DNA of 64,000 nt from Thermoplasmatota archaeon (GTDB taxonomy: Archaea; Thermoplasmatota; Thermoplasmata; UBA10834). The position numbers and the translations under genes are program-made. Below the pieces are notes generated by a model. The model was not told where the DNA came from and made no database searches. It saw only the letters and a program-made list of their open reading frames with translations. Positions within the stretch are counted from its first letter, which is position 1, and each line of letters opens with the position of its first letter. Positions 5,970 to 26,324 of this stretch are shown one piece after another. Where the stretch lies: assembly GCA_040751795.1 (NCBI GenBank), contig JBFMHR010000003.1, forward strand, positions 264,421 through 328,420, read 5' to 3'.

Positions 5970-6481
5970 GCACTGCGCCTGACGAACTCGCGTTCTATCA
6001 TGTCCACTATGGCCGGGAGGCTGGCCGCCACCCTCGGGGTGAGCCCCTCGCGGAAGTTGTCGACGTCCTCGGCCTCTATGGCCACGAAGAACACCTCCTT
6101 CGGCATCCTGTCGGGCACGACCTGCCTCCCCATGGCCAGGGCCGTGGGGATGTTGAAGCCGTGGGGCGAGGTCCCGTGGACGGTCCTCCGGAAGTCCTCC
6201 TCCGTGAGTATGTAGTGGTCCCCCGGGGTGCCCCCCCTCGTCTGTATCGCGTCGATTATGACCACCCTGTCGTGGTCGAGGACCATGTCGAGGAGCTCGA
6301 GCCCGCTCGCCGGGAGCTCCTCTATCGACACGCCCTCCAAGCCCCGCTCCATGAGCATCCTGGCGGCGTATATCCCGACGCCGTCGTCAGAGAGCACGGG
6401 GTTCCCGACTCCCACGATGAGGGTCTTCACGGGCAAGGGTAGCACCTCATGCGTATTCATCCTGTCGGGGTGGAAAATCAT
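5966..6481 (-). CDS. [NiFe] hydrogenase maturation endopeptidase (HycI/FrhD/HoxW family)
   Basis: LIVGVGNPVLSDDGVGIYAARML motif. Lies immediately downstream of mvhA on the same strand. Confidence 0.8.
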   Translation of the reverse strand: MIFHPDRMNTHEVLPLPVKTLIVGVGNPVLSDDGVGIYAARMLMERGLEGVSIEELPASGLELLDMVLDHDRVVIIDAIQTRGGTPGDHYILTEEDFRRTVHGTSPHGFNIPTALAMGRQVVPDRMPKEVFFVAIEAEDVDNFREGLTPRVAASLPAIVDMIEREFVRRSA

Positions 6482-6515: not shown

Positions 6516-8030
6516 TCAGAAGTTCCTGAGCTTCTCCGCGACCGAGCCGTCCGCCTTCCTGACGGTCACCTCTAGCGCCGGCCCGCCGTTCAGCGAGTGC
6601 GTGCCGCAGGAGTTGCAGGGGTCGTAGCACCTGAAGGCCATCTCGACCTTGTTGAGCAGCCCCTGCGAGACCATCCCGTTGTGGATGAGCGCCTTGGCCG
6701 CCTGCTTCACGCTCGTGTTCATGGCCGCGTAGTTGTTGGTCGTCGCGACGATCATGTTGATCTTGGTGCACAGGCCGTCCTTGTCGGAGGCGTAGTGGTG
6801 TATCAGCGTGCCCCTCGGGGCCTCGCATATGCCCACGCCCTCCTTGGGCGGGTTCCACGGCCCCCTGGTGTCGTCGCTGGTGATGCTCTTGTCCCTCGCG
6901 AGCTCGAGCATGCGCTCGGTGGCGTACTGGAGCTCTATCACGCGCGCCCAGTGGTACGCCAGGGTGTGGTGCACCGGCCCGGTGACGCCCAGGTCCCTCA
7001 TGGTCTTCTTGAACGCCTCGTACTCGGCCTGCGCCAGGGGGGTCGTGTAGCCCTCGCAGACGTTGATCCTGCCGAGCGGTCCGACCCTGTATATGCCGCT
7101 GGAGGGGCCGGTGGTGAAGCCGTTCCAGCCCACGTTCTTGAGGTAGGGCATCTTCATGTAGGTCCAAGGCTCGACGTGCTCCGCTATGACGTCCAGGTAC
7201 TCGCTGGGCTTGAACTTCACGACCTGCTTGCCCTTCTGGTCGACCACCCTTATGTCGCCGTCGTAGAACTGGCTCTTGTTGTTCTTGTCGACCATGCCCA
7301 TGTAGTAGGTCTCGAGGTAGTATGCGTCCTGGTTGAGCACCAGGCCGAGGTAGTCCTTGTTCGCGAGCACGACGTCGTGGAAGAGCTTGATGGTGAACTT
7401 GCCGAACTCGACGCAGCTCTTGGCCATCTCCTCCATCTGCGCGCGCTCCTCCTCGGAGATCTGCTTCGAGACGCCCCCGGGGAGGCCGAACACGGGGTGC
7501 GTCGCCCTGCCCCCGATGATCTCCTGGATCTTCTGGCCGTAGGAGCGGTGCTTGATGACCTCGGCGCCGATCGGGACGCCCACGGCGTCGACGACCCCGA
7601 GGACGTTCCTCTTGTTCGACGGGGCCGACGGCCCGAGGACGAAGTCCGCGGCCGCGAGGGCGTAGAAGTGGGCTATGTGGCTGTGCGTGTACTGCCCCAT
7701 GTAGAAGAGCTCCCTGAGCTTCTTCGCCGTGGCGGTCGGCTCTGCGCTGAACACGGCGTCCAGGGCCTTGGTGGACGCTATGTGGTGGGCCGCCGGGCAC
7801 ACGCCGCAGAGCCTGTTCGTCAGGACGGGCAGCTCCTGCACGTGCCTGCCTATGCAGAACCTCTCGAAGCCCCTGAGCTCCGGGATCTGCATGTAGGCGT
7901 TGGAGACCTCCCCCTTGTCGTCAAGGAATATCTCTATCTTGCCGTGCCCCTCGAGCCGCGTCACGGGGTCGATCGTGATCTTCTTCTCCGTCGTCTTCAC
8001 CGGTGTGTCGTTGATGATCGGTCCTGCCAT
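6516..8030 (-). CDS. mvhA: F420-non-reducing [NiFe] hydrogenase large subunit MvhA
   Basis: N-terminal RLEGHG...RxCGVC Ni-binding motif. C-terminal DPCNSCGTH is followed by a protease-cleavable extension. Length 504 aa. Confidence 0.9.
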   Translation of the reverse strand: MAGPIINDTPVKTTEKKITIDPVTRLEGHGKIEIFLDDKGEVSNAYMQIPELRGFERFCIGRHVQELPVLTNRLCGVCPAAHHIASTKALDAVFSAEPTATAKKLRELFYMGQYTHSHIAHFYALAAADFVLGPSAPSNKRNVLGVVDAVGVPIGAEVIKHRSYGQKIQEIIGGRATHPVFGLPGGVSKQISEEERAQMEEMAKSCVEFGKFTIKLFHDVVLANKDYLGLVLNQDAYYLETYYMGMVDKNNKSQFYDGDIRVVDQKGKQVVKFKPSEYLDVIAEHVEPWTYMKMPYLKNVGWNGFTTGPSSGIYRVGPLGRINVCEGYTTPLAQAEYEAFKKTMRDLGVTGPVHHTLAYHWARVIELQYATERMLELARDKSITSDDTRGPWNPPKEGVGICEAPRGTLIHHYASDKDGLCTKINMIVATTNNYAAMNTSVKQAAKALIHNGMVSQGLLNKVEMAFRCYDPCNSCGTHSLNGGPALEVTVRKADGSVAEKLRNF

Positions 8031-8036
8031 CTCATC

Positions 8037-9050
8037 TCACCCCTTCCTCTTGCGCTCCTTGACGGTCCTCCTCAGAGGGGACTTCGGGAGCGTGAACGCA
8101 TAGAAGGTCCCGAGCGGGTCCTTGACCTGCATCATCATTTCCATTATCTGCTCCTCATTTAACTTTGACTCCGAATCCGTGATGTTGAGGAGGGACGAGA
8201 CGGCGCTCAGCATGCTCGCGCCCTGGTCCGTCACGGCCTTGGTCGGTCCCATGCAGCCCCTGCAGGGCATGTTCGCGTTCGGGCACATGGCGCCGCAGCC
8301 CGCCCTCGTCGCAGGGCCGATGCATATGATGCCCTGGTCGAGGAGGCACTTCTTCGGGTCCGCCTTGATCTCGTACGACTGGTAGATCTTGTCTATGCGC
8401 CTGTTCTTCTCGACCCTCTCCCTCTTGCACTCGTCGCACAGGGTCTTGTCGCTCGCTATGACCGTCCCCTTCGGGGGCAGCGGCGCCCCCTGCGTCACGT
8501 GCTTCGCGACCACGTCGACAGCCAGGGCGATCAGGTTCGTGGTCGGCGGGCAGCCCGGCATGAAGTAGTCGACGTCGACCACCTCCTCCAGGGTCTTGAC
8601 GTCGTCGTAGAACCTGGGCAGCTCGAGCTCGCCCTCGGGCACCTTCGTGTGCTCCTGGGGGTACGTGCCGGCCTTGTTGTCCGTGGACTGGGTCTTCTTG
8701 TACACGGTCTCGAAGACCTCCTCCCTGTTGGTGACGTTGCCCAGGCCGGGCGTGCCGCCGAAGCAGGCGCACGAGCCGAAGCTGATCAGCACGACCGACT
8801 TCTGCCTCAGGACCTTCGCCACGTGCTCGTTCTCGCTGTTCCTTATGGCGCCGTTGTAGAACGACACCGTGATCGACTTGTCGGGCATCTGCTCGATCTC
8901 GTGCAGCTTGCCGTCGAACCCTATCGGCCAGAACACGACGTCCGCTATCGCGTGGACGTCCAGGATCTTGGCGTCGATGTCCAGGAGCGCGACGTCGCAG
9001 CCGCCGCACCCTGCCCCCCAGTACTGCGCGATCTTGATCTTCTCAGCCAT
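8037..9050 (-). CDS. mvhG: [NiFe] hydrogenase small subunit MvhG
   Basis: Cys-rich small-subunit motifs (GCGGCDVA, GSCACFGG, GPATRAGCGAMCP). Sits upstream of the large subunit. Confidence 0.9.
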   Translation of the reverse strand: MAEKIKIAQYWGAGCGGCDVALLDIDAKILDVHAIADVVFWPIGFDGKLHEIEQMPDKSITVSFYNGAIRNSENEHVAKVLRQKSVVLISFGSCACFGGTPGLGNVTNREEVFETVYKKTQSTDNKAGTYPQEHTKVPEGELELPRFYDDVKTLEEVVDVDYFMPGCPPTTNLIALAVDVVAKHVTQGAPLPPKGTVIASDKTLCDECKRERVEKNRRIDKIYQSYEIKADPKKCLLDQGIICIGPATRAGCGAMCPNANMPCRGCMGPTKAVTDQGASMLSAVSSLLNITDSESKLNEEQIMEMMMQVKDPLGTFYAFTLPKSPLRRTVKERKRKG

Positions 9051-9051
9051 C

Positions 9052-9435
9052 TCAGTTCACCTCTCCTGCACCCGTCTTCTTCAGCAAGGCCGCGTACTGA
9101 GGCGACTGGCCCTTCATCCCCGCCTGCTCGATGAGCCTCCACTTCTTGAGGGCGATGATGTGCCTGACGATCTCCGGCTTAGGTATGCCCGTGGCGTCGT
9201 GCAGCTCGTGCACGGTCCTCAGGCCCCGCTCCATCTCCATCAGGAGCGAGTTCCTCTCCAGGTCCACCGCTGCAGCCTTCTGCACGATGAAGCTGTACCT
9301 CGCGTCGGTGATCGCCTCGCCGAAGACGTTGCCGGATGTGGTGAGCTGCCCCTTCTTCCCGAGGAGCCACCTCACCCGCTCGCCCTCGACGGTCCTCCTG
9401 GCCGCCTCTATCCTGGCCTTCCTGTCCATCCTCAT
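9052..9435 (-). CDS. Small winged-helix-like protein (domain X), free-standing homolog of the C-terminal half of the MvhD fusion at 12916..13707
   Basis: 127 aa. LERNSLLMEMERGLRTVHELHDATGIPKPEIVRHIIALKKWRLI aligns with FERSLILELSRGRARSVKELGQIMDVPTDRVLRHIVALRQKNMI of the fusion protein. ATGA overlap with mvhD upstream. Confidence 0.6.
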   Translation of the reverse strand: MRMDRKARIEAARRTVEGERVRWLLGKKGQLTTSGNVFGEAITDARYSFIVQKAAAVDLERNSLLMEMERGLRTVHELHDATGIPKPEIVRHIIALKKWRLIEQAGMKGQSPQYAALLKKTGAGEVN

Positions 9436-9884
9436 TCACCACCTCGCATCGGTGATGGTCCAAGTTCGTTTATCGTCTCGGTGAACTCCGTGATGGTCTT
9501 CTGGAACTTCTCGCCTTCACCGGCGGAGATCCACTCGAGCCTCAGCCTGTCCGGGTCGTAGCCGAACTGCTGTATCAGCATCTTCAGGAGGGCTATCCTC
9601 CTGCGGGTCCTGTAGTTCCCCCCTATGTAGTGGCAGTCCGCCGGGTGGCACCCCGCGACGAGTATGCCGTCCGCGCCCTTCTTGAACGCCCTCAGGACGA
9701 ACTCCGGGTCCACACGGGCCGAGCACATCACCCTGATGACCCTGAAGTAGGGCGGCATCTGCAGCCTGCTCACGCCCGCGAGGTCCGCGCCCGCGTACGA
9801 GCACCAGTTGCAGCAGAACACGATTATCTTCGGCTCGAACGCGTGCTCGGCCGCACCGTGCGCCTCCTTCGCCTCGCTGCTCAT
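9432..9884 (-). CDS. mvhD: Hydrogenase iron-sulfur subunit MvhD ([2Fe-2S])
   Basis: FCCNWCSYAGADLAG ... GCHxxDCHY motifs. 150 aa. ATGA overlaps with genes on both sides. Confidence 0.85.
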   Translation of the reverse strand: MSSEAKEAHGAAEHAFEPKIIVFCCNWCSYAGADLAGVSRLQMPPYFRVIRVMCSARVDPEFVLRAFKKGADGILVAGCHPADCHYIGGNYRTRRRIALLKMLIQQFGYDPDRLRLEWISAGEGEKFQKTITEFTETINELGPSPMRGGE

Positions 9885-12800
9885 CCCTTCACCTCCTGCT
9901 TCTTCGGCTGCTCAAGCGCAGCATCGATCATCGCCAGTATCTGCTCGTCCCTGAAGCCCTTCTGCGTCAGGGCCCCCGCAGGGCACGCGCCCACGCAGGC
10001 GCCGCAGCCCTTGCACAGCCCCACGTTGACGCTGACCATCTTCTTCTTCGGGTCGTCCTTGTGGGGCACGATGTCCAGCGCCTTGTACTCGCAGGTCGGG
10101 ACGCATATGCCGCAGCCGTCGCACAGGCTCTCGTCGACGCTCGCGACTATGCCCTCCGCCTCGAGGGTCGTCTTCGACAGGACGGTCATCGCCCTCGCGA
10201 CGGCCGCCAGGGCCTGGGATATGCTCTCGTCCACGAACTTCGGCCCGTGCGCCAGCCCCGCGAGGTACACGCCCTCGGTGGCGAAGTCGACCGGCCTCAG
10301 CTTCATGTGCGCCTCGAGGAAGAAGCCCTCCTTGGTCAAGGGCACCTTCAGCATCGGCGCGAGCTCCTCGGCGTCGTGCTGCGGCCTGGTGCCTGACGCG
10401 AGGACGAGGTAGTCGGGCCTGAGGACCAGCAGCTTGCCGGTGTCCTCCTCGGTCACCTTGACCTCCAGCTTCCCGCCCTTGTCCTCCACGACGGGCTTCT
10501 TCTCGTCGTCGAACCTGACGAACTTGACGCCCTTCTGCGAGGCCTCCTTGTAGTACTTCTCCCTGAAGCCGTAGGTCCTGATGTCCCTGAACAGGACGTA
10601 GACCTCCGCCTCCGGGTCCTTCTCCTTGACCTTCGTGGCGGCGGTCATCGTGCCCGTGCAGCACACGCGCGAGCAGTTCGGGTGGTCTCCCTCCCTGGAG
10701 CCGACGCACTGTATGAAGGCGTACGACTTCCCCTTGGCCTCGCCCTTCTTGAGCATCTCCTTGAACTCGAGCAGGGTCTTGACGTTCTTGCTCTTCCCGT
10801 AGAGGTACTCGCCCTCGGGCCTGTGCTCCTGCCCGCCGACCGCGAGTATGACAACGCCGTGCTCGACCTCCTTGCCGTCGGCGAGGGTGGTCTTGAAGTT
10901 CCCGACGTACCCCTCGATGTTCTTGACCTTGGCCCCGAGGTGCACGGTTATGTTCTTCTCCGCCCTGACCTCGGCCTCGAGCCTCTTCACGTGCTCCATC
11001 GGGTCGTCGCCGGAGGGCAGGTAGTGCAGCTTCCTCAGGTTGCCCCCGAGCTCCTTCTCCTTCTCCACGAGGTGGACCTTCACGCCCTGCCTGGCGAGCT
11101 CGAGCGCGGCCACCATGCCGCTCACGCCCCCGCCTATGACCAGGGCCTGCTGGTTCACCTTGATGGTGAGGTTCTCGAGCGGCTCCAGGAGCTTCGACTT
11201 GGCGATGGCCATCCTGACGAGGTCCTTGGCCTTCTTGGTGGCGGCCTTGGGCTCGTGCATGTGGATCCAGGAGCACTGGTCCCTGATGTTCGCCATCTCG
11301 AAGAGGTAGGCGTTGAGCCCGGCCTCCCTGATGGTGTTCTGGAACAGCGGCTCGTGGGTCCTGGGCGTGCAGCTCGCGACCACGACCCTGTTGAGCTTGT
11401 GCTCCTCGACCTTGCCCTTGATGCGCTCCTGCGCGTCCTGGGAGCAGGTGTAGAGGTTCTGCTCGGCGTAGACCACGCCCGGCAGCGTCTTGGCGTACTC
11501 CATGACCTCGGGCACATTGACGACGCCGCCGATGTTGATGCCGCAGTGGCACACGAACACGCCGATCCTCGCCTCCTGCCCGCCGACGTCCTTCTCCTTG
11601 GGGTACTCCTTCTTGGTGACGAGCGTGCCCCTGGCGGAGGCTATCTCCGTCCCGGCCCTGGCCGCGGCCCCGCTCGCCTCGGCGACCGTCATGGGTATGT
11701 CCTTGGGGGACGAGAACGCCCCGCTCACGAACACCCCCGGCCTCGAGGTCTCGACCGGGGTGAACACCCCGGTCTGGCAGAAGCCGTCGTCGTTGAGGCG
11801 GAACTTCATGACGCGGCTCAGCGCCTCCGCGTCGGAGGCAGGCGTCAGCCCGACTGCGAGCACCACGAGGTTGAAGACCTCCTCCTTCGGCTCGCCGTCC
11901 TCGGTGTACTTGAGTATGAGGTTCTTGGTCTTCGGGTCCTCGCTGACCGCGGCTATCCTCGACCGGACGAACCTGATCCCGTACTCGTCCTTGGCGCGGT
12001 TGTAGTACTCGTCGAACTGCTTCCCGAACGCCCTCAGGTCCATGTAGAATATCGAGGGCTTGATGTTGCCGCCGTGCTCCTTGGCTATGATGGCCTCCTT
12101 GACGGAGTACATGCAGCACACGCTGGAGCAGTACTCGTTCCCGCAGTGCTCGTCCCTCGAGCCCACGCACTGTATGAAGGCGATCTTCTCGGGTATGTCG
12201 CCGTCGGAGGGCCTCAGGACGGTGCCGAAGTACGGCCCGGTCGCGCTCAGCATCCTCTCGAACTCGATGCTCGTCACGACGTTCTGGTACACGCCGTACC
12301 CGTACTCGGGCTTCAGGCGCGCGTTGAACTCCTCGAAGCCGGGCGAGACTATGATCGACCCGACCTGGATCTCGAACACCCTCTCCTTCTGGTCGTACGC
12401 GACGGCCTTGGCCTTGCACTCCTCGGCGCATATGCCGCAGCCGATGCACCTCTCCGGGTCTATGGAGTAGACCAGCGGCACGGCCTGGGGGTAGCGCACG
12501 AATATGGCCTTGCGGACCTTCGTGCCCTCGTTGTACTCGTCCACGGTCTCGATGGGGCACTTCTGCGCGCAGCTGCCGCAGCCCGTGCACTTGGTCTCGT
12601 CGACCCTGAACGCCCTCTGCTTGACCGTGACGGTGAAGTTGCCCGCCTGCCCGTCCACTATGGCTATGTCCGCGTTCGTTATCAGCTGGATGTTGTGGTG
12701 CCTGCCCGTCGCGACGAGCTTGGGCGCCATGATGCACATGGCGCAGTCGTTGGTCGGGAAGGTCTTGTCCAGCTGGGCCATGACCCCGCCGATGCTCGGC

Positions 12801-12916
12801 TGCTTCTCCACCAGGTACACCTTGTACCCGGAGTCGGCCAGGTCCAGCGCGGACTGGAGGCCGGATATGCCCCCGCCCACGACCATGACGGCGCCGACCT
12901 TGTCAGTTGCGGCCAT
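9881..12916 (-). CDS. hdrA: Large heterodisulfide reductase subunit A: extra N-terminal FAD/thioredoxin-reductase-like module fused to a complete HdrA
   Basis: About 1011 aa. Residues 1-430 (VVGGGISGLQ, ferredoxin CxxCxxCxxxCP) are paralogous to the free 431-aa protein at 15582..16877. Residues ~450-1012 are a standard HdrA: RIGVFVCHCG Fe-S N-domain, second GGGVSG FAD motif, inserted and C-terminal 2x[4Fe-4S] domains. An alternative GTG start lies 3 nt upstream. Confidence 0.9.
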   Translation of the reverse strand: MAATDKVGAVMVVGGGISGLQSALDLADSGYKVYLVEKQPSIGGVMAQLDKTFPTNDCAMCIMAPKLVATGRHHNIQLITNADIAIVDGQAGNFTVTVKQRAFRVDETKCTGCGSCAQKCPIETVDEYNEGTKVRKAIFVRYPQAVPLVYSIDPERCIGCGICAEECKAKAVAYDQKERVFEIQVGSIIVSPGFEEFNARLKPEYGYGVYQNVVTSIEFERMLSATGPYFGTVLRPSDGDIPEKIAFIQCVGSRDEHCGNEYCSSVCCMYSVKEAIIAKEHGGNIKPSIFYMDLRAFGKQFDEYYNRAKDEYGIRFVRSRIAAVSEDPKTKNLILKYTEDGEPKEEVFNLVVLAVGLTPASDAEALSRVMKFRLNDDGFCQTGVFTPVETSRPGVFVSGAFSSPKDIPMTVAEASGAAARAGTEIASARGTLVTKKEYPKEKDVGGQEARIGVFVCHCGINIGGVVNVPEVMEYAKTLPGVVYAEQNLYTCSQDAQERIKGKVEEHKLNRVVVASCTPRTHEPLFQNTIREAGLNAYLFEMANIRDQCSWIHMHEPKAATKKAKDLVRMAIAKSKLLEPLENLTIKVNQQALVIGGGVSGMVAALELARQGVKVHLVEKEKELGGNLRKLHYLPSGDDPMEHVKRLEAEVRAEKNITVHLGAKVKNIEGYVGNFKTTLADGKEVEHGVVILAVGGQEHRPEGEYLYGKSKNVKTLLEFKEMLKKGEAKGKSYAFIQCVGSREGDHPNCSRVCCTGTMTAATKVKEKDPEAEVYVLFRDIRTYGFREKYYKEASQKGVKFVRFDDEKKPVVEDKGGKLEVKVTEEDTGKLLVLRPDYLVLASGTRPQHDAEELAPMLKVPLTKEGFFLEAHMKLRPVDFATEGVYLAGLAHGPKFVDESISQALAAVARAMTVLSKTTLEAEGIVASVDESLCDGCGICVPTCEYKALDIVPHKDDPKKKMVSVNVGLCKGCGACVGACPAGALTQKGFRDEQILAMIDAALEQPKKQEVKG

Positions 12917-13707
12917 CACTGCTCACCTCCGATGACGATGGTCTTGTATGTTGGAGTGAACCCCTCCGGGTGCTCCATCGCTATCATGTTCTTCTGCCTC
13001 AGGGCGACGATGTGCCTCAGGACCCTGTCCGTAGGGACGTCCATGATCTGCCCCAGCTCCTTGACGGACCTGGCCCTGCCCCTGGACAGCTCGAGGATGA
13101 GGCTCCTCTCGAACTCCTCCTCCGTCGAGGCGTCTATGATCTTGTCGAGCTCCGCCGGGTCCAGCTTGTTGCCGTAGGCGTTGCCCTTGTTGACCAGGTT
13201 CAGCTCCCTGCCGACGAGCGCCTTGAGCCTGAAGGTCTCCGACGCGCCGTCCGCTGCGGCCACCCTGTCGCCCAGCCTCTGGTCCTTCCTGACCTTGCTC
13301 GGGCCGAGCCTCCTTATGTTCTCGGTGAACTCGGTCACGACCTTGGAGAACTTCTCCCCCTCGGACGCGGAGACCCACTCCAGCCTGAGCCTCTCGGGCT
13401 CGAGCCCGCTCTCCTCGAGCAGGCGCTTCATCAGCCTCACGCGCTTCTCGGTGTAGTAGTTCCCGGAGATGTAGTGGCAGTCGCCTATGTGGCAGCCGCC
13501 CAGGAGCACGCCGTCCGCCCCGGCCCTGAATATGTCGAGGACGAGGTGGGGGCTGATCCTGGTCGAGCACATGACCCTCACGGCCCTTATGTTCGTGGGG
13601 TACTGGTACCTGCTGACCCCGCACAGGTCGGCGCCCGCGTACGAGCACCAGTTGCACAGGAACCCTATGATCTTCGGCTCGAACTCCGCCTTGGGTGCGT
13701 CGGCCAT
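12916..13707 (-). CDS. MvhD domain fused to C-terminal winged-helix-like domain X
   Basis: The N-terminal ~140 aa are MvhD (FLCNWCSYAGADL, GCHIGDCHY). The C-terminal ~115 aa are homologous to the free-standing ORF 9052..9435. Confidence 0.8.
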   Translation of the reverse strand: MADAPKAEFEPKIIGFLCNWCSYAGADLCGVSRYQYPTNIRAVRVMCSTRISPHLVLDIFRAGADGVLLGGCHIGDCHYISGNYYTEKRVRLMKRLLEESGLEPERLRLEWVSASEGEKFSKVVTEFTENIRRLGPSKVRKDQRLGDRVAAADGASETFRLKALVGRELNLVNKGNAYGNKLDPAELDKIIDASTEEEFERSLILELSRGRARSVKELGQIMDVPTDRVLRHIVALRQKNMIAMEHPEGFTPTYKTIVIGGEQ

Positions 13708-13710
13708 GGC

Positions 13711-15585
13711 TCACACCTCCTCCTGGAGCGCGGCCTTCGCCTCTGCGAGCAGCTGCGCGTCGGTGTAGTTGGTCATGGTTATCGCGCCCTCGGGGCAGGT
13801 CGCGCCGCAGCAGCCGCAGCCCTTGCACGCCGCCACGATGACCTCCGCCAGGCCCTTGTCGTTCTTCCTGAGCGCGCCGTACGGGCACACCTCTATGCAG
13901 GTTCCGCACCCGGTGCACCTGGTCTCGTCGACGACCGAGGTCAGCGCCTCGGCCTGGACGTAGCCCTTGGCCATCGGGATCGCGGCCCTCGAGGCCGCGG
14001 CCGAGCCCTGCGTGACCGCCTCGGTTATGTCCGCCGGGCCCTTGCAGGTCCCGGCGACGTATATGCCGTCGGTGGCGAAGTCGACCGGCCTCAGCTTCAC
14101 GTGCGCCTCCAGGAAGAAGCCCTCCTGGCCCAGCGGCACCTTGAGCATCTTGGACAGCTCGCCCGCGTCCGGCTGCGCCACGAGCGGGGTCGACAGGACG
14201 ACCATGTCGACGGGCATCGTCCTCTCGAGCTTCAGGGTCTCGTGGAAGTACGTGACCTTCAGCTGGTTGTCCTCCATGAAGACCTTGGGCAGGTGGTCGA
14301 GGGTGTACCTGTTGAACTTGACCCTCTTCTCCCTGGCCTTGTTGTAGGTGAGCTCGTGCTCCACGCCGTAGGCCATGACGTCCCTGTTGAACACGGTGAC
14401 CTCGATCTTCTCCGACGGCCCGAGCTTGACCTCCTCGGCCTCGCCCTCGGCCTCGCCGCGCCCGCGCCTCCTGCGCCTGCGCTCGAGGATCTCGTCGGTC
14501 GCCTTCTTCTCGACGGGGATCTTCTCGACGACGGTCCCGGCCTTCTCCATGACCCCGAGCATGTTCTCGTAGTTGTCCACGATGTTGATGGCGTTCTTGA
14601 TGGCGACGTTGCAGCAGATCCTGGAGCAGTAGGACATCTTCTGGCCCCTGGACCCGACGCACTGTATGAACGCCACGCTCTTGAGCTTCGGGAGGGTCTT
14701 CTTCTTGCACAGGATCTCGAACTCCGTCAGGGTGACGACGTTAGGGTACTGGTTGTAGCCGTACAGGCCCTCGGGGACGAACTCCAGCGCACCGGTGGCG
14801 ACGACTATCGTGCCGACCTTGAACTTCTTCCCCTCGCCCCCCTTGGGGGCGATGACGACCTCGTAGTTGCCTATGAAGCCGTCGATGCTCTTGACGGTCG
14901 AGTTCAGGTGCAGCGTGATGTTCTTGTGCCCCTTGACCTTGTCTATCAGGGGCTTTATGGTGTCCGTCGCGCCCTTCTCGGTGACGTAGAGGTTGTTCAG
15001 GAGCCTGACGAAGCCCCCGAGCTCCCCCTCCCTCTCGACGAGGTGCACGGGGAAGCCCATGTCGGCCAGCGAGGCCGCGGCGGTCATCCCGCTGACGCCG
15101 CCGCCAATGACCAGCCCGACCGGCTCGACGTCGACCTTCGCCTCCTCCTGGGGCTTTAGCAGCCTGGCCCTCGCGACGCCCATGCGGATCAGGTCCTTGG
15201 CCTTCTTCGAGGCGAGGTCCTTCTCCTTCATGTGCACCCACGAGCAGTGCTCCCTGATGTTCACGAACGTGAACAGGTACTTGTTGAGGCCGGCGCCCTC
15301 GCAGGTCGCCTGGAACAGGGGCGCGTGCGTCCTGGGCGTGCAGCTCGCCACTATGACCCTGTTCAGGTTGTGCTTCCTGATGGCCTCCCTGATGCTGCCG
15401 AGCCCGTCCTCCGCGCAGGTGTACATGTTCTGGGTCGCGTACACCACGTCGGGGAGCGTCTTCGCGTAGTCCGCCACGGTGGGGACGTCCACGAACCCGC
15501 CTATGTTGCTCCCGCAGGAGCAGACGAACACGCCTATCCTCGGCTTGTCGACCTCGTTGACCTTGTTCTCAGCCATGTCGCTCAT
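13711..15585 (-). CDS. hdrA: HdrA, complete-HdrA module (the C-half of a split large HdrA)
   Basis: Begins MSDMAENKVNEVDKPRIGVFVCSCG. The ATG overlaps the TGA stop of the upstream 431-aa gene (ATGA). Carries FAD-binding GGGVSG, an inserted ferredoxin and a C-terminal 2x[4Fe-4S] ferredoxin domain. Confidence 0.85.
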   Translation of the reverse strand: MSDMAENKVNEVDKPRIGVFVCSCGSNIGGFVDVPTVADYAKTLPDVVYATQNMYTCAEDGLGSIREAIRKHNLNRVIVASCTPRTHAPLFQATCEGAGLNKYLFTFVNIREHCSWVHMKEKDLASKKAKDLIRMGVARARLLKPQEEAKVDVEPVGLVIGGGVSGMTAAASLADMGFPVHLVEREGELGGFVRLLNNLYVTEKGATDTIKPLIDKVKGHKNITLHLNSTVKSIDGFIGNYEVVIAPKGGEGKKFKVGTIVVATGALEFVPEGLYGYNQYPNVVTLTEFEILCKKKTLPKLKSVAFIQCVGSRGQKMSYCSRICCNVAIKNAINIVDNYENMLGVMEKAGTVVEKIPVEKKATDEILERRRRRRGRGEAEGEAEEVKLGPSEKIEVTVFNRDVMAYGVEHELTYNKAREKRVKFNRYTLDHLPKVFMEDNQLKVTYFHETLKLERTMPVDMVVLSTPLVAQPDAGELSKMLKVPLGQEGFFLEAHVKLRPVDFATDGIYVAGTCKGPADITEAVTQGSAAASRAAIPMAKGYVQAEALTSVVDETRCTGCGTCIEVCPYGALRKNDKGLAEVIVAACKGCGCCGATCPEGAITMTNYTDAQLLAEAKAALQEEV

Positions 15586-16877
15586 CCCCCCGCCTGGGCC
15601 ATGGCCTCGACCGCCTTCGCGGCCGCGCTCGAGCCCTGGGCGACCGCCTCGGGTATGTCCGCCGGGCCGGCCGCGTACCCCGCGAGGTACACGCCGGGCT
15701 TGACGGTCCTGCCCGGGCCGAGGATCCTGTCCGCAGACTCCAGGAACCCGAACTCGTCGACCTTCAGCCCGAGTATCTTCGCCAGCTCGGCCGTCTCCTT
15801 CCTGGGCACCAGCGTGGTGGCCAGGACGACGAGGTCGAACTCCTCGGACTGCTGCCTGCCGCCCACGTCGTACACGACGACGGGGTTGTGTGTGTCCGGG
15901 TTCTCCTGGACCGTGGCGTCGGAGTTGATGTACCTGACGCCGTAGTCGCGCTTGGCCCTCTCGACGTACTCGTAGAAGCCCTTGGCGCAGGCCCTCATGT
16001 CCTTGTAGAATATGGTGGACTCGATGTCGTCGTAGTGCTCCCTCGCCAGCATCGACTCCTTGGTCGAGTGCATGCAGCACACGGCGCAGCAGTACGGGTG
16101 CCCGACCTGCGGGTTCCTCGAGCCGACGCACTGTATGAACGCCATCTTCTTCGGCCTCTCCTTGTCGGAGCGCCTCTGGATGTGGCCGTGGGTCGGGCCC
16201 GCGGCGTTGATCATCCTCTCGTACTCCATCGCCGTGAAGACGTTGGGGTACCGGCCGTAGCCGTACTCCGTGGACGGGGTCGGGTCCCAGACGTCGAAGC
16301 CGGTGGCGACTATGATCGCGGCGACCTCTATCTCCAGGACCTGGTCCTTCATCTCGTAGTTGATGGCGCCCCTCTTGCAGACCTTCATGCAGTTTCCGCA
16401 CTTGTCCTTGGTCAGCTTGAGGCAGTGCTCCTTGTCGATGGTCATGACCCTGGGGACGGCCTGCATGAACGGGATGTATATCGCCTTCCTCGTGGTGAGG
16501 CCCATCTCCCAGTCGTTGACGACCTTGCTCGGGCACTTCTCGAGGCACTCCCCGCAGCCGGTGCACTTGGTCTCGTCGACGTACCGGGCCTTCTTGAGCA
16601 CCTTCACCTTGAAGCTGCCGACGCTCCCCTCGACGCCGATCACCTCAGAGTAGGTGATCACATTGGTGTTCGGGTGGCTGAAGCAGTCGGCCATCTTGGG
16701 CGCCAGTATGCATATAGAGCAGTCGTTCGTAGGGAAGGTCTTGTCCAGCTGGGCCATCCTCCCACCGATGCTGGGGGTCTTCTCGACCAGATGGACGATC
16801 AGTCCCTTGTCCGCCAGGTCCAGCGACGCCTGTATCCCGGCGACTCCCCCTCCTATCACCATAACCGCCTTCTCCAT
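15582..16877 (-). CDS. HdrA-like FAD-dependent oxidoreductase module (the N-half of a split large HdrA)
   Basis: 431 aa: VIGGGVAGIQASLDLA, DKTFPTNDC, one ferredoxin CTGCGECLEKCP. Paralogous to residues 1-430 of both large HdrAs. Lacks the RIGVxVCHCG N-domain and the C-terminal ferredoxins. Confidence 0.85.
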   Translation of the reverse strand: MEKAVMVIGGGVAGIQASLDLADKGLIVHLVEKTPSIGGRMAQLDKTFPTNDCSICILAPKMADCFSHPNTNVITYSEVIGVEGSVGSFKVKVLKKARYVDETKCTGCGECLEKCPSKVVNDWEMGLTTRKAIYIPFMQAVPRVMTIDKEHCLKLTKDKCGNCMKVCKRGAINYEMKDQVLEIEVAAIIVATGFDVWDPTPSTEYGYGRYPNVFTAMEYERMINAAGPTHGHIQRRSDKERPKKMAFIQCVGSRNPQVGHPYCCAVCCMHSTKESMLAREHYDDIESTIFYKDMRACAKGFYEYVERAKRDYGVRYINSDATVQENPDTHNPVVVYDVGGRQQSEEFDLVVLATTLVPRKETAELAKILGLKVDEFGFLESADRILGPGRTVKPGVYLAGYAAGPADIPEAVAQGSSAAAKAVEAMAQAGG

Positions 16878-17085: not shown

Positions 17086-17529
17086 TCACTTGGCCGAAAG
17101 GACCTCCTTCGCCTCGGTGTCCTTCTGGATCTCCGTGACCTTGACCTTGAAGGGGGCCTTCTTCCTGCCTTGCATCCCCTCGGACGCGAACCTCTGGCAG
17201 TTCGGGTATGTGCAGGGGGTGCACTTCTTGTCCTTGCACGACAGCTCTATGAGCACGAGCCTGTCCCTGGTGTCCGCGGCCCCGGTGACCGGCTTCCTGA
17301 CCTCGAACATCTTGGTCATCCGCGTCTCGTAGGGCTTCTTCTTCGGCTCTATCCTGGCGAACCTCTGGCAGTTCGGGTAGGTGCACGGGTCGCACTTCTT
17401 GTCCTTGCACGACAGCTCGATCAGCAGGACCCTGTCGCCCTGCCCCTTCGCCTGGGCCGCCTCCTTGGCGTCCTTCTCCTTCTTCTCCGTCTTCGGTGTC
17501 ATCCTAACAGTCCTTCGCGTTTCATTCAA
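17086..17529 (-). CDS. Small basic Cys-rich protein with an internal tandem duplication (2 x C-x5-C-x2-C-x4-C)
   Basis: Contains LIELSCKDKKC(D/T)PCTYPNCQRFA twice, 57 aa apart. The underlying ~81-nt DNA segments at 17187..17267 and 17358..17438 are about 89% identical. Lys-rich composition in a GC-rich genome. Overlaps the stop of the upstream gene. Confidence 0.55.
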   Translation of the reverse strand: MNETRRTVRMTPKTEKKEKDAKEAAQAKGQGDRVLLIELSCKDKKCDPCTYPNCQRFARIEPKKKPYETRMTKMFEVRKPVTGAADTRDRLVLIELSCKDKKCTPCTYPNCQRFASEGMQGRKKAPFKVKVTEIQKDTEAKEVLSAK

Positions 17530-19087
17530 GCTGCTCAGCGATGGCGACGCTGAGGTCCTTGATCGGTATGTCGACCTGCTCCTTGGGCACCTGGGTCTTG
17601 TTCTCCTGGACGCAGGAGAGGTGTATGAGGCACTTGTAGCACCCCGTCACGAGGCACTCTGCCCCCGTCCTCTTGGCCTCCTTCAGCCTCTCGACCTGCA
17701 GCCTCCTGGAGGTCTCGTCGCAGGTGGCCCATGCGCTCACGCCGCAGCAGAGGGCCTTGTCCCGGACGTTCTCCATCTCCAGGATCTGCGTGCCCTTGGA
17801 GGCGGTCAGGGCGCTCCTGGGCTGGTCGTATATGCCCATGTGCCTGCCGAGCCTGCACGAGTCCTGGAAGGTGAGCTTCCGGGCGCTGTCCTTCAGCCTG
17901 AGCCTGCCCTCCTTGACCAGGTCGTCCACGAACTCCGAGATGTGGACCATCTCGAAGGGGTGGTCCCCGGCCAGCTCCTGGTAGTCCAGGTCGAACGTGC
18001 GCATGCACTCGGGGCACGAGAAGACGACCTTCTTGGCCCCCGAGGCCTTTATGACCTCGAGGTTCTTCTTCATCAGCTTCTGGAGCGCCGCCTCGTCCCC
18101 CGTCCAGTTGAGGTCGTGCCCGCAGCAGACCTCGTCGTTGCTGACGGCCGGGACAATGCCCGCCCTGTTCATAATCTTTACGACCGCCCGGGGTATGCCA
18201 GACAGGTCCAGCTTCCTCTCCTTGAATATCGCGTCGAAGTACGGCGCGCAGCCCGTGAAGAAGAAGACCTCGCCCTTGTCGGCTATCTTGAGTTCGGGGG
18301 TGACCCAGCTGAGCCTGTCCTGCTTGAAGCTCCCGTGGGCCATGATCCTCATCACGCCCTGCATGAGCCCGCCCTGGGAGCAGGCGGGGTCGTTCTCGAG
18401 GGCGACGGCCTCGCCCCTGAGGCCCCGTATGAACCCGGAGTAGTCGACCTTGTACGGGCACATGGAGTTGCACTGCTCGCAGGTGACGCAGGTCCATATG
18501 TCCTTGTCCTTAGAGAGGTTGCCCACCTGCCCCTCGGTCGCCCTCAGGACTATGGTCCTCGGGGCGAACTCGGTGTTGTACTTGGCGACGGGGCAGACGG
18601 TGGTGCACTTCCCGCACTCGACGCAGTCGAAGGCCCCCGTGTCCTCGATGAGCGCGTCTATGCGCTGCTTGAGGGTGTCGGGGTTCCTGGTGGCCCTCTT
18701 CACCTTGGGCATCGGGTTGGGGCCGAGCGCCCTGACCTGCTCGGTGAACTCCTTCATGGTCGCGGCGAACTTCTGGCCCTCCGAGGCGGAGATCCACTCC
18801 AGCCTCATCCGGTCCCTGCCCACGCCGAGCCTGTCGAGGACCTCCTTCACGGACTCCATCCGCTTCTCCGCCTCGACGTTCCCGGATATGTAGTGGCAGT
18901 CGCCAATGTGGCACCCGGCGACGAGCACTCCGTCCGCGCCGAGCTCGAGCGCCCTCACGATGAAGTAAGGCTCGACCCTGCCGGAGCACATCACCCTTAT
19001 GACGCGCGCGTTGGGCGGGTACTGCATCCTGCCCACGCCCGCGAGGTCCGCGCCCGCGTACGAGCACCAGTTGCAGCAGAAGGCCAC
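17522..19087 (-). CDS. MvhD-domain / HdrD-like (HdrC + HdrB) fusion protein; start codon uncertain (GTG at 19087 or CTG at 19118 overlapping the hdrA stop)
   Basis: N-terminal FEPNIVAFCCNWCSYAGADLAG...GCHIGDCHY (MvhD). Two CxxCxxCxxxCP motifs (HdrC-like). C-terminal Cys-rich CCG-type domains (CCGHDL..., ALCCGVSAWATC..., TGCYKC) as in HdrB/HdrD. No ATG or TTG lies between the hdrA stop and the conserved FCC motif. Confidence 0.75.
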   Translation of the reverse strand: MAFCCNWCSYAGADLAGVGRMQYPPNARVIRVMCSGRVEPYFIVRALELGADGVLVAGCHIGDCHYISGNVEAEKRMESVKEVLDRLGVGRDRMRLEWISASEGQKFAATMKEFTEQVRALGPNPMPKVKRATRNPDTLKQRIDALIEDTGAFDCVECGKCTTVCPVAKYNTEFAPRTIVLRATEGQVGNLSKDKDIWTCVTCEQCNSMCPYKVDYSGFIRGLRGEAVALENDPACSQGGLMQGVMRIMAHGSFKQDRLSWVTPELKIADKGEVFFFTGCAPYFDAIFKERKLDLSGIPRAVVKIMNRAGIVPAVSNDEVCCGHDLNWTGDEAALQKLMKKNLEVIKASGAKKVVFSCPECMRTFDLDYQELAGDHPFEMVHISEFVDDLVKEGRLRLKDSARKLTFQDSCRLGRHMGIYDQPRSALTASKGTQILEMENVRDKALCCGVSAWATCDETSRRLQVERLKEAKRTGAECLVTGCYKCLIHLSCVQENKTQVPKEQVDIPIKDLSVAIAEQLE

Positions 19088-19113
19088 TATGTTCGGCTCG
19101 AAACGCTCCTCGG

Positions 19114-26188: not shown

Positions 26189-26324
26189 GGTTCCCCCTCC
26201 TACTCGACTTGCCGCGTCGAAGTGCCGGATGGCCCGAGTGACCCCGCGGGAAGGCACCATTTCCTGCCGACTGGCGCTCCCACTCAGACCAGGTGTCGGA
26301 CGAGTGCAGATAATAAAGAGGTGC

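Follow-up and report, generated by a model that had tools for sequence, protein, structure and literature searches.

The winged-helix domain X, a dedicated ~120-aa extension of the [2Fe-2S] adaptor protein MvhD, probably acts as a docking domain of an HdrA-based electron-bifurcating system, judging from comparative sequence evidence. X is nearly always fused to, or adjoins, MvhD beside HdrA, for which reason a structural role in docking, and not gene regulation, is most likely. Two copies are encoded in the window (the whole stretch of 64,000 nucleotides that was analysed), each in a cassette of HdrA, MvhD and X, and as part of the same explanation we consider it probable that the region belongs to a single long operon in an uncultured Thermoplasmatota archaeon. 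The two cassettes comprise:

15582..16877, minus strand: HdrA-N, separate gene of cassette 1 (431 aa), with a TrxR-like FAD module and an inserted ferredoxin domain (Pfam Pyr_redox_2, Fer4)
13711..15585, minus strand: HdrA-C, separate gene of cassette 1 (624 aa), carrying, besides a second TrxR module, the N-terminal Fe-S domain of HdrA and, at its C-terminus, a 2x[4Fe-4S] ferredoxin domain
12916-13707, minus strand: MvhD-X fusion of cassette 1 (263 aa)
13294..13707, minus strand: MvhD domain of the fusion, a [2Fe-2S] adaptor (FlpD, PF02662, E=5e-54, residues 13-135)
12919..13293, minus strand: X domain of the fusion, predicted as three short helices, one long helix and a winged helix
9881..12916, minus strand: double HdrA #2 (type II, BamE-like), N- and C-modules fused (1011 aa; Pfam Pyr_redox_2, Fer4)
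9432..9884, minus strand: separate MvhD (150 aa; FlpD, PF02662, E=1e-56)
9052..9435, minus strand: standalone X (127 aa), of the MvhD-associated winged-helix family, with marginal Pfam HTH_IclR and HTH_5 matches

All six open reading frames occur where a preliminary description had placed them, and they are tightly coupled. ATGA overlaps join HdrA-N to HdrA-C, HdrA #2 to MvhD, and MvhD to X (the translational coupling of the last pair had been recognised), the MvhD-X/HdrA #2 junction is a TGATG overlap, and the spacers between HdrA-C and MvhD-X and between X and the following mvhG gene measure 3 nt and 1 nt. The first ATGA had been located exactly at the fusion junction of the large HdrA; this holds within alignment resolution, because the split lies in the ~38-residue linker between the modules (residues 412-449 of the fused HdrA). 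MvhD and X are split directly after the MvhD motif LGPS, where the fusion reads on. Pyr_redox_2 and Fer4 domains are found in the HdrA genes (Pfam), and the cysteine motifs CNWC, MCS and GCHIGDCHY of the fusion's MvhD are also present in the separate copy.

By pairwise BLASTP alignment the two cassettes are diverged paralogues, with similarity far above chance. HdrA-N (residues 12-412) aligns to residues 17-411 of the fused HdrA with 46% identity (E=3e-128) and HdrA-C (16-622) to residues 450-1003 with 44% (E=5e-161); the MvhD copies share 61% identity (E=3e-66), and standalone X shares 30% over 112 aa with the C-terminal half of the fusion (E=5e-16). The earlier term "duplicated" thus stands for paralogy; it overstates recency, because the cassette pair is conserved across phyla, and the comparisons point to an ancient conserved pair that arose by neither recent nor local duplication. 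All cassette genes are under purifying selection (dN/dS 0.06-0.19; 0.06 for HdrA-N, 0.10 for HdrA-C, 0.17 for fused X and 0.19 for standalone X), so neither cassette is a decaying pseudogene copy. Conservation of X between genomes (73-81%) is near that of the catalytic subunits.

Both cassettes originally described are real, and the count was incomplete: directly upstream lies a third (17522-22149), made up of a double HdrA and an MvhD-HdrC/B fusion. The neighbouring genes are:

5966..6481, minus strand: hydrogenase maturation protease, HycI-like (Pfam HycI)
6516..8030, minus strand: MvhA-like [NiFe]-hydrogenase large subunit (Pfam NiFeSe_Hases)
8037..9050, minus strand: MvhG-like [NiFe]-hydrogenase small subunit (Pfam Oxidored_q6), starting 1 nt past the X stop codon
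17086..17502, minus strand: small Cys-rich protein with the internal repeat LIELSCKDKKCxPCTYPNCQRFA (x2), kept in two further loci (L004 and L005)
~17522..19116, minus strand: MvhD-HdrC-HdrB-like fusion of the third cassette (Pfam FlpD 6e-56, Fer4_17, CCG 1e-22)
19114..22149, minus strand: double HdrA #3 of the third cassette (Pfam), 58% identical to HdrA #2
22606..23955, minus strand: CCG-domain (HdrB/HdrD-like) protein (Pfam CCG 8e-30, two stretches)
24101..26260, minus strand: canonical-type HdrA (719 aa; Pfam), heading the hdr gene array, Glu/Lys pair retained

The small Cys-rich protein has no family match in Pfam or NCBIfam. The MvhD-HdrC-HdrB-like fusion, in the order FlpD, 2x[4Fe-4S] and two CCG domains, places a disulfide-reductase-type module where the MvhD-X fusion has X; its reading frame lacks a canonical start codon, with CTG where an orthologue has TTG.

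Two surveys (PMC12054007, PMC11237513) catalogue type II HdrA, which has two TrxR domains, and fusions of HdrA with MvhD (HdrA2, type Ia); duplicated and fused HdrAs with MvhD as a further part are also reported, from Asgard and TACK archaea. The 1011-aa HdrAs of the window are type II; those two surveys list no domain after MvhD, no pair of split and fused cassettes and no Thermoplasmatota. Double HdrA #2 aligns to the canonical HdrA 5odc_A in permuted order (residues 11-371 to 147-509, 447-601 to 2-156 and 845-999 to 497-648). The Glu/Lys pair of the bifurcating FAD is retained in the separate HdrA-N and in the N-module of HdrA #2 (E220/K273), whose C-module has K/T at these sites; G/A replace the pair in the C-module of HdrA #3. 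Among the fused HdrAs of the window the pair is hence retained in N-modules only, unlike the separate HdrA-C, which keeps both residues. BamE, a fused and domain-permuted HdrA dimer, likewise has the bifurcating-FAD lysine only in its N-terminal TrxR module (bioRxiv 10.64898/2026.04.10.717634). According to PMC12054007 both TrxR modules of type II HdrA retain the key residues, which the fused copies in the window have lost in the C-module.

Residues 1-138 of the fusion, like the separate MvhD, are clearly homologous to the solved MvhD/VhuD of methanogen Mvh-Hdr complexes (PDB 5ODC, 7BKB, 8RVU, 9SW2; E=1e-45 to 1e-54, and 1.5e-54 for the fusion against 5odc_D), with predicted folds at TM 0.92-0.94 and all cysteine motifs present. 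The solved chains (129-141 aa) all lack an X extension, and their partner is a single-module HdrA homodimer, where the window has two-module HdrAs, fused or split.

An exhaustive search with an X-only HMM returned 278 representative clusters (138 at E<=1e-10), with matches spanning profile positions ~5-118, beyond the HTH. Among the best 150 of the 278 there were 76 MvhD-X fusions, 68 short or standalone proteins and 6 others, and in 75 of the 76 fusions X starts <=13 residues from the MvhD end. An independent DNA pattern covering only X positions 21-114 found 120 loci, 118 of them true X, in 118 species genomes. These genomes contain 124 X domains, of which 112 form fusions with MvhD and 5 more directly follow an MvhD reading frame; HdrA lies <=1.5 kb from 121 of the 124, and directly downstream of 114. 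Phylogenetic profiling, as suggested at the outset, thus shows X tracking MvhD and HdrA and almost never occurring away from them. The order HdrA-N, HdrA-C, MvhD-X, double HdrA, MvhD, (HdrCB), (MvhG, MvhA) recurs in Thermoplasmata, Bathyarchaeia, Asgard archaea, Desulfobacterota and Chloroflexota, with rearranged gene order in the bacterial versions.

Each fission state of the window occurs fused elsewhere. One locus encodes HdrA(N+C)-MvhD-X in a single 1366-aa reading frame (L072), another HdrA-MvhD (1230 aa) with X as a separate gene behind it (L048), and three a double HdrA fused to MvhD (L016, L022, L041); HdrA-MvhD-X occurs twice (P0140, P0174) and MvhD-X-HdrA-N(GltD) three times (L106, P0263, P0269), in P0269 as part of HdrA-C-MvhD-X-HdrA-N(GltD). 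Such comparative fusions and adjacency, together with the purifying selection and the cryo-EM precedent described below, strongly support the initial proposal that HdrA-N, HdrA-C, MvhD and X belong to one physical complex.

The X family carries the signature R.RWLVGKE..L...GNVYGE, then a winged helix-turn-helix (wHTH) and G..P.Y; no curated model in Pfam or NCBIfam covers it. Structure prediction makes X a conserved winged-helix module, a nature that had gone unrecognised in the preliminary description. The AF2 model of MvhD-X is a single confident unit (pLDDT 88, pTM 0.87, X mostly >90), and the N-terminal helices of X rise from pLDDT ~65 alone to >90 within the fusion.

Since X is a winged-helix domain, a regulatory role is formally conceivable: X could bind DNA as a transcription factor of ArsR/SmtB type and autoregulate the hdr/mvh operon, with the [2Fe-2S] domain of the fused MvhD as redox sensor. 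We regard this as unlikely, even though the best PDB fold matches of the predicted wHTH are SmtB, CzrA, BigR and NolR and the X profile matches the ArsR-family structure 8qkf over the HTH (E=1.4e-5). The weak sequence similarity covers helix 2, helix 3 and the wing, whereas the N-terminal segment and the wing motif are X's own. Matches to ArsR/SmtB models fall below curated thresholds (18 bits against a cut-off of 55 for the NCBIfam ArsR model with standalone X), marginally excepting HTH_IclR and HTH_5 (23.7 bits against 22) in Pfam for the standalone copy; fused X matches no Pfam, NCBIfam or HTH model. Conservation peaks at N36 (GNVYGE loop), P112/Y114 (wing) and E58, none of which belongs to the recognition helix; the residues that this helix exposes are variable. 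In favour of regulation, the standalone copy has a basic pI of 10.1, but the family is mostly acidic or neutral (median pI 6.4; 62% acidic). Fusions of enzymes with regulators are known, e.g. PutA, and one cluster is adjoined by an additional, divergently oriented X-like reading frame with regulator-like placement (L091). Against this, the 112 fused copies are C-terminal extensions of an electron-transfer subunit, located between HdrA genes and not at operon edges, some X domains sit inside polypeptides of 1366 to 1737 aa, and standalone X is translationally coupled on both sides, to mvhD and mvhG. A search of the operon's intergenic regions, a weak test, found no convincing operator-like palindrome. 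The ArsR-type regulator label that X usually receives in annotation is most likely a mislabelling of a docking piece.

An unusually basic X encoded on its own between mvhD and mvhG is a lineage-specific trait. It is confined to one Thermoplasmata clade, always in the order MvhD, X, MvhG, MvhA, where other lineages have HdrCB. Its net charge of +8 puts it at the basic extreme of the family, and its branch is long: identity reaches only 27-31% to any fused X, against 68-94% among orthologues and 68-83% within its own clade. Its dN/dS is somewhat above that of its neighbours. The high charge and long branch are compatible with a functional change, and X might be integral to MvhD-type adaptors generally while this copy has exchanged the function of fused X for a new role, for example in nucleic-acid binding or as a hydrogenase-specific assembly factor or chaperone. 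We find this rather improbable, given that standalone X retains the whole family signature, including the positions that are invariant between it and the fused lineage (A11, A12, R20, L24, G26, L31, N36, E60, R61, V75, E77, L78, G109 and P112), that the two genes part, with overlapping ATGA, exactly where the MvhD and X domains meet, and that a Chloroflexi genome with an independent MvhD/X fission has an ordinary X with GNVYGE.

Under the docking interpretation, the operon would encode an HdrA-based flavin electron-bifurcating system of several modules that receives electrons from the Mvh-type [NiFe] hydrogenase. Each double HdrA, or HdrA-N plus HdrA-C pair, would form a pseudo-dimeric flavoprotein core of the BamE or type II HdrA kind, served by one MvhD adaptor. 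X, not a free transcription factor, would pack onto MvhD and dock it to an adjoining redox module: the next HdrA core for the widespread fused form seen in cassette 1, or a GltD-bearing, NAD(P)H-oxidising HdrA-N for the bacterial fused form. The second copy, which in this lineage became a separate gene, most likely helps to dock the MvhAG hydrogenase to MvhD and HdrA #2. Electrons would pass from H2 through MvhAG and MvhD to the bifurcating FAD of the HdrA N-module, and from there to CCG/HdrCB-type modules and ferredoxin. We infer the physical contact of X, its docking partner and the direction of electron flow, and the choice of docked module follows from gene order and fusions only.

The only structural precedent for X is BamF of the class II benzoyl-CoA reductase of Geobacter metallireducens. 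BamF, the partner of BamE, is an MvhD-homologous [2Fe-2S] adaptor >100 aa longer than classical MvhD, and its wHTH contacts BamI of the electron-input module by cryo-EM (preprint, bioRxiv 10.64898/2026.04.10.717634). Both systems combine a double HdrA with an extended adaptor (263 aa in the window). BamF is described with two Rossmann-fold domains, whereas the MvhD-X model has one alpha/beta domain, and the extensions may be analogous rather than homologous. The partners also differ: on the Bam side they are BamGHI, an NADH/ferredoxin module, and BamBC, a tungsten module, and in the window the Mvh [NiFe] hydrogenase together with CCG modules and further HdrA cores. None of the 120 DNA-pattern loci holds a bam-like cluster or MvhD-X followed by NuoE/F/G-like genes.

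That the cassettes are separate, independently acting Hdr-type enzymes, merely co-transcribed, with X capping or stabilising the MvhD C-terminus and bridging nothing, would fit their ancient divergence (44-61% identity), differing flavin-site residues and MvhD fusion partners (X vs HdrC/B) and the bacterial rearrangements, but is very improbable in view of a pair kept adjacent and in order across phyla, a cassette 1 that usually lacks its own donor or acceptor module except where a GltD domain has been inserted, and the cross-cassette fusions MvhD-X-HdrA-N and that of P0269. In many anaerobic archaea and bacteria, X is thus most likely a structural part of large electron-bifurcating complexes.

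X, the winged-helix (wHTH) domain of about 120 aa that is fused to MvhD in one cassette of the window and forms a standalone gene in the next, is a previously undescribed, widely conserved MvhD-associated domain, and a two-core hdr gene array is conserved alongside it. An ORF and Pfam survey of the window places both copies in a long, closely packed minus-strand gene array that spans 5966-32708. The coordinates of the six genes in the preliminary description are exact, and all six lie on the minus strand.

Genes of the array, listed from its head
head of the array, minus strand: hypB, hypF, hypA and hypD, in that order
24101-26260, minus strand: canonical-type HdrA, after the hyp genes
22606-23955, minus strand: CCG protein
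19114-22149, minus strand: double HdrA (HdrA#3) of the third cassette
about 17522-19116, minus strand: MvhD-HdrC/HdrB-like fusion of the third cassette
17086-17502, minus strand: small Cys-rich repeat protein, between the third cassette and a gap
15582-16877, minus strand: HdrA-N
13711-15585, minus strand: HdrA-C
12916-13707, minus strand: MvhD-X fusion (263 aa)
9881-12916, minus strand: double HdrA (HdrA#2)
9432-9884, minus strand: separate MvhD
9052-9435, minus strand: standalone X
downstream of standalone X, minus strand: MvhG, MvhA and a HycI-type protease, in that order

Pfam matches bear out both the flavoprotein/ferredoxin makeup typical of HdrA and the assignment of the MvhD parts to FlpD. 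ATGA overlaps join HdrA-N to HdrA-C, HdrA#2 to MvhD, and MvhD to X, a TGATG overlap joins MvhD-X to HdrA#2, and the other junctions are 1-3-nt spacers. The gap upstream of HdrA-N, 208 nt, separates it from the small Cys-rich gene. The preliminary description, sound on its six genes, does not include the third cassette, whose MvhD is joined to an HdrC/B-like CCG module instead of X.

Several features of the array deserve mention in their own right. The small Cys-rich protein (17086-17502, minus strand; ~138 aa) contains two copies of LIELSCKDKKC(D/T)PCTYPNCQRFA, with the pattern C-x4-C-x2-C-x4-C, and is kept in the related loci L004 and L005 (137 aa). Searches of Pfam and NCBIfam gave it no family match, and a role in the hdr system as a small metal or Fe-S protein is possible. 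Near the conserved N-terminus of the MvhD-HdrC/B fusion gene (19105-19125, minus strand), none of the start codons ATG, GTG or TTG is present. The TGA stop of HdrA#3 sits in ‘CTGA’ in the window and in ‘TTGA’ in the L004 orthologue (245-260), where a TTG start overlaps the stop. The window gene has CTG where the L004 orthologue starts, which could reflect loss of the start codon, a rare case of initiation at CTG, or termination-reinitiation. Flanking the hydrogenase end of the array are a 945-aa multi-PAS histidine kinase (21-2858, plus strand) and two ~235-aa ORFs without a Pfam family match (2842-4250). The corresponding end in L001, L004 and L005 has a PAS/HATPase sensor that resembles this kinase and includes a receiver domain, along with a pair of DUF2238-family ORFs close in length to the two in the window. 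The PAS histidine kinase is a more conventional operon-regulator candidate than X.

The cassettes with split and fused HdrA are true paralogues. Pairwise alignment matches all their parts at 30-61% identity (E=5e-161 to 5e-16): HdrA-N with residues 17-411 of the fused HdrA (46%, E=3e-128), HdrA-C with residues 450-1003 (44%, E=5e-161), the two MvhD copies with each other (61%, E=3e-66), and standalone X with the C-terminal half of the MvhD-X fusion (30%, E=5e-16). Relative to the L004 orthologues, dN/dS is 0.06-0.12 for the HdrA, MvhD, MvhG and MvhA genes, 0.19 for standalone X and 0.17 for the X part of the fusion, and purifying selection acts on all the genes compared. Conservation between genomes is 73-81% for X, 80-90% for the catalytic subunits and 55-61% for HycI. 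The preliminary description would have been undermined if one cassette were a decaying pseudogene copy; neither is, because dN/dS is low (0.06-0.19) and the ORFs and Cys motifs are intact.

What had been called a duplicated cassette holds as a paralogous pair but not as a recent local duplication, since the same two-cassette order is common to several phyla. The array HdrA-N / HdrA-C / MvhD-X / double HdrA / MvhD / HdrCB / MvhG / MvhA recurs in Bathyarchaeia, Asgard archaea and Thermoplasmata, and bacteria have the variant orders HdrA-C / MvhD-X / HdrA-N(GltD) and double HdrA / MvhD / MvhD-X / HdrA-N / double HdrA / MvhD. Because the ordered array recurs across lineages, the split-HdrA plus MvhD-X cassette and the fused-HdrA plus plain-MvhD cassette constitute a conserved pair, and an ancient one. 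Five long contigs share the layout of the window but vary in instructive ways: in L002 there are two MvhD-X fusions besides a separate MvhD and a separate X, and in L001 HdrA-N is a 901-aa protein with a Fer4_20/GltD-type NAD(P)H module. Two features are specific to the lineage of the window: the MvhD-HdrCB fusion of the third cassette, and a separate X gene between mvhD and mvhG, a position that HdrCB occupies in other lineages.

Each fission state in the window is found fused in some other locus. L072 encodes HdrA(N+C)-MvhD-X in a single 1366-aa ORF, the Chloroflexi locus L048 has an HdrA-MvhD fusion followed by a separate X, double HdrA-MvhD fusions occur in L016, L022 and L041, and L106 has an MvhD-X-HdrA-N(GltD) fusion. 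The preliminary suggestion that HdrA-N, HdrA-C, MvhD and X form one assembly gains support from these fusions and from the cross-phylum association of X with MvhD and HdrA.

Standalone X passes two Pfam models marginally (HTH_IclR, 24 bits, and HTH_5, 23.7 bits, each with a cut-off of 22). Its homologues, ~125-aa proteins of 70-94% identity in uncultured Thermoplasmata, ‘Methanobacteriota’ and RBG ‘Euryarchaeota’ MAGs, are usually labelled by pipelines as ‘ArsR family transcriptional regulator’ or ‘hypothetical protein’. The main rival to a role in the enzyme complex would make X a true ArsR-type regulator, perhaps one that senses redox state via MvhD. The wHTH similarity is in its favor, but X scores 18 bits against NCBIfam HTH_metalloreg (ArsR), far under the curated cut-off of 55, and fused X has no match at all to the Pfam HTH models. 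In the AlphaFold2 prediction, X begins with three short helices, which a single long helix and a canonical winged helix follow. The MvhD-X fusion is modelled as one confident unit (pLDDT 88, pTM 0.87), with the wHTH elements (helices 215-222 and 226-238, strands 242-248 and 251-256) at pLDDT >90. The N-terminal helices of X have pLDDT ~65 when modelled alone and >90 in the fusion, a comparison across runs with different alignments that is only suggestive of their packing on MvhD. Foldseek searches of the PDB with X alone returned generic weak wHTH matches (SmtB, CzrA, BigR, Z-alpha; E >1e-3).

An X-only profile of 126 positions, used for an exhaustive HMM search of 1.84 billion representatives, recovered 278 clusters, 138 of them at E<=1e-10, and the matches cover nearly the whole profile. 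The family is recognized by R.RWLVGKE..L...GNVYGE, followed by a long helix, then the wHTH and finally G..P.Y. Conservation is centered on the GNVYGE loop and the G..P.Y wing, and the best-conserved positions (N36, E58, P112 and Y114) are not on the exposed face of the recognition helix, which argues against a regulator, in which conservation would be expected to center on the DNA-reading helix. The basic charge of the standalone copy in the window (pI 10.1) would suit DNA binding by a regulator, but this copy is the basic extreme of a mostly acidic to neutral family (median pI 6.4). The standalone clade is 68-83% identical within itself and 27-31% identical to any fused X, and for fused X identity falls gradually, from 79% to about 40%, into Bathyarchaeia. 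Operator-like inverted repeats in the intergenic regions of the operon amounted to short GC-rich matches at chance level, a result that is uninformative for archaeal regulators.

Among the best 150 of the 278 clusters, 76 are MvhD-X fusions, 68 are short or standalone and 6 have another architecture, and in all but one of these fusions X starts no more than 13 residues past the end of MvhD. Large X-containing proteins are HdrA-MvhD-X or HdrA-MvhD-X-HdrA(GltD) fusions. In an independent test, one genome per GTDB species was scanned with a 282-nt degenerate DNA pattern of fixed spacing that covers X positions 21-114 only. This gave at least 120 loci, and 118 of the 120 listed hold a true X by HMM. 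Among the matches listed, X is fused to MvhD in the same ORF in 112 of 124 cases and has an MvhD ORF directly upstream in 5, and the other 7 are mostly at locus edges; an HdrA-like gene lies within 1.5 kb of 121 of the 124 X domains and directly downstream of 114. The archaeal hosts among these matches are Thermoplasmata, Methanomassiliicoccales, Bathyarchaeia, Prometh-, Heimdall- and Hermodarchaeota, and the bacterial hosts are Desulfobacteraceae, Syntrophobacteraceae, Syntrophaceae, Thermodesulfobacteriota, Chloroflexota and Clostridia. The preliminary description would have been undermined by X homologues in contexts unrelated to Hdr/Mvh; instead, fusion or adjacency to MvhD and HdrA is near-universal among the matches listed.

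Such overwhelming fusion inside enzyme polypeptides, together with the translational coupling of standalone X between structural genes, argues against the regulator. In its favor is L091, a Thermoproteota MAG locus with an MvhD-X fusion and a second, standalone X-like ORF (1749-2111, minus strand; 121 aa, E=7e-14). This ORF is divergent from the hdr array, adjoins HdrA-N (2498-3796, plus strand), and retains ‘RVRWIAGR’ and the wHTH without the GNVYGE loop. It is placed as a regulator gene might be, a hint that X and an operon regulator are evolutionarily linked. Overall, the genomic behavior of X marks it as a probable part of the enzyme. A rare alternative X architecture is found in two representatives from the profile search, P0153 (756 aa) and P0168 (516 aa), which have two X-like stretches mid-protein without MvhD, followed in one by a 2x[4Fe-4S] ferredoxin domain.

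The three MvhD copies of the window match FlpD (PF02662) over its full length (182, 190 and 188 bits; cut-off 22.3) and solved MvhD chains by phmmer (E down to 1.5e-54). MvhD-X and the separate MvhD contain all cysteine motifs (CNWC, MCS and GCHxxDCHY), and FCCNWCSYAG, VMCSGR and GCHIGDCHY can be read directly in the MvhD-HdrCB translation. The MvhD part of the fusion model has TM-scores of 0.92-0.94 to the solved chains, which are all 129-141 aa long and lack an extension, whereas that of the 263-aa MvhD-X exceeds 100 aa.

In other lineages, MvhD-X proteins can have a degenerate first Cys motif (P0141, P0145, P0215, P0224, P0238 and P0275), where CNWC is replaced by CDW-A, CNWS, CTWS, CNWG or CNWA; by sequence, some may have lost or altered the [2Fe-2S] site yet retained X. 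In the MvhD-X gene of at least 17 bacterial loci, an in-frame TGA falls exactly on the first Cys codon of GCHxGDCHY (‘...VLVAG[TGA]HFGDCHYL’): L106 (6754-6756), L120, L053, L070, L065, L087, L069, L122, L078, L121, L102, L023, L104, L071, L074, L082 and L030. The hosts are Desulfobacteraceae, Syntrophobacterales and relatives. Given its position at a conserved Cys, the TGA predicts selenocysteine-containing MvhD-X proteins. Selenocysteine explains only part of the N-truncated MvhD-X gene calls: the 165-175-aa class does follow the in-frame TGA, but the ‘MCSGRVDP...’ class reflects missed non-ATG starts (TTG in L006).

Both double HdrAs have two TrxR-like FAD modules (GxGxxG motifs at 14 and 595 in HdrA#2 and at 14 and 597 in HdrA#3), and split HdrA-N and HdrA-C jointly cover the fused-protein spans 17-411 and 450-1003. 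Relative to canonical 5odc_A, the domains of the double HdrA are permuted (11-371 to 147-509, 447-601 to 2-156 and 845-999 to 497-648). The Glu/Lys pair that marks a bifurcating FAD (PMC12054007; E356/K409 in 5ODC numbering) is kept in the N-modules of all three units. The C-modules of the fused HdrAs lack it (K/T in HdrA#2, G/A in HdrA#3) and split HdrA-C (13711-15585) retains both residues, so the BamE-like hallmark of a single bifurcating FAD is found in HdrA#2 and HdrA#3 but not in the split pair. This does not extend to a rule that split HdrA-C keeps the flavin Lys and fused HdrA loses it: across at least 120 loci, the C-module Lys is retained in 54 of 71 fused (76%) and 51 of 61 split proteins. 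Because most C-modules elsewhere keep Lys, the Glu/Lys loss in fused C-modules is lineage-specific. The HdrA-N partner of MvhD-X is often of the ‘type III / HdrL-like’ form (e.g., L001 1099-3804, L042 4425-6158, L017 3793-5511 and L045 3789-5459), in which a GltD/NfnB-like domain that binds NAD(P)H (Fer4_20 + Pyr_redox_2) is inserted. This form suggests that NAD(P)H is a donor or acceptor of the split-HdrA cassette in bacteria and some Thermoplasmata. HdrA-N of the window (431 aa) lacks this domain.

Type II (two-TrxR) HdrA and HdrA-MvhD fusions were already catalogued (PMC12054007, PMC11237513), with no mention in either paper of a domain after MvhD. For a wHTH on an MvhD-type adaptor there is one relevant precedent, BamF of the class II benzoyl-CoA reductase of Geobacter metallireducens (PDB 29QY, 29RC and 29RN), the sole relevant match of a literature search on MvhD with winged helix or helix-turn-helix. 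In the 2026 cryo-EM preprint on this enzyme, the wHTH of BamF contacts the electron-input module, and BamE is described as a ‘fused HdrA dimer’ with a domain permutation and one bifurcating and one non-bifurcating FAD (bioRxiv 10.64898/2026.04.10.717634). Like BamE, HdrA#2 and HdrA#3 are fused and permuted two-module HdrAs with the Lys/Glu pair in one FAD module only; like BamF, MvhD-X has an extension of >100 aa on MvhD that includes a winged helix-turn-helix. BamF is described with two Rossmann-fold domains, to which the MvhD-X model, with one alpha/beta MvhD domain, then helices and the wHTH, does not obviously correspond. The match of MvhD-X and double HdrA to BamF/BamE is an analogy of architecture, not demonstrated membership.

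How might X function within such an enzyme? Each HdrA unit would be a pseudo-dimeric flavin core paired with an MvhD [2Fe-2S] relay, and X would pack on MvhD and dock it to the module encoded next. X is encoded before MvhG in the window; bacterial X is encoded before the GltD-bearing HdrA-N or fused to it. Fused X may dock onto another HdrA core or, in bacteria, onto the GltD-bearing, NAD(P)H-oxidizing HdrA-N, and the partner of standalone X in the window lineage is probably the MvhAG hydrogenase. MvhAG would take electrons from H2 and MvhD would relay them to the bifurcating FAD in the N-module of an HdrA, where they would be split between CCG/HdrCB-type modules (high potential) and ferredoxin (low potential). 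We tentatively propose, as a possibility we consider rather unlikely as a whole, that MvhD-X is a dedicated inter-module coupler whose wHTH bridges two flavin cores, one of split HdrA-N/HdrA-C and one of fused double HdrA (with HdrCB and Mvh hydrogenase), in a ‘tandem bifurcation’ super-complex common to Asgard archaea, Bathyarchaeia, Thermoplasmatota, Desulfobacterota and Chloroflexota.

Flavin-based electron bifurcation in methanogens, sulfate reducers and acetogens has HdrA/MvhD modules at its core, as it does, based on genomes, in Asgard and Bathyarchaeia archaea. X may bear on how the large two-module HdrAs are wired to their donors and acceptors. An un- or mis-annotated ‘ArsR regulator’ becomes a defined domain family with a clear signature, which corrects the annotation, and the HdrA-N / HdrA-C / MvhD-X / double HdrA / MvhD / HdrCB / MvhGA array proves common to two domains of life. 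X also provides structural biology with a concrete target, and allows the wHTH-mediated docking of modules described for BamF to be tested as a general design principle. Should the MvhD-X coupler be real, it would generalize a principle of module coupling for which benzoyl-CoA reductase is the single example to date, and the X family, now labelled as ArsR regulators, would be a diagnostic marker of the tandem-bifurcation super-complex.
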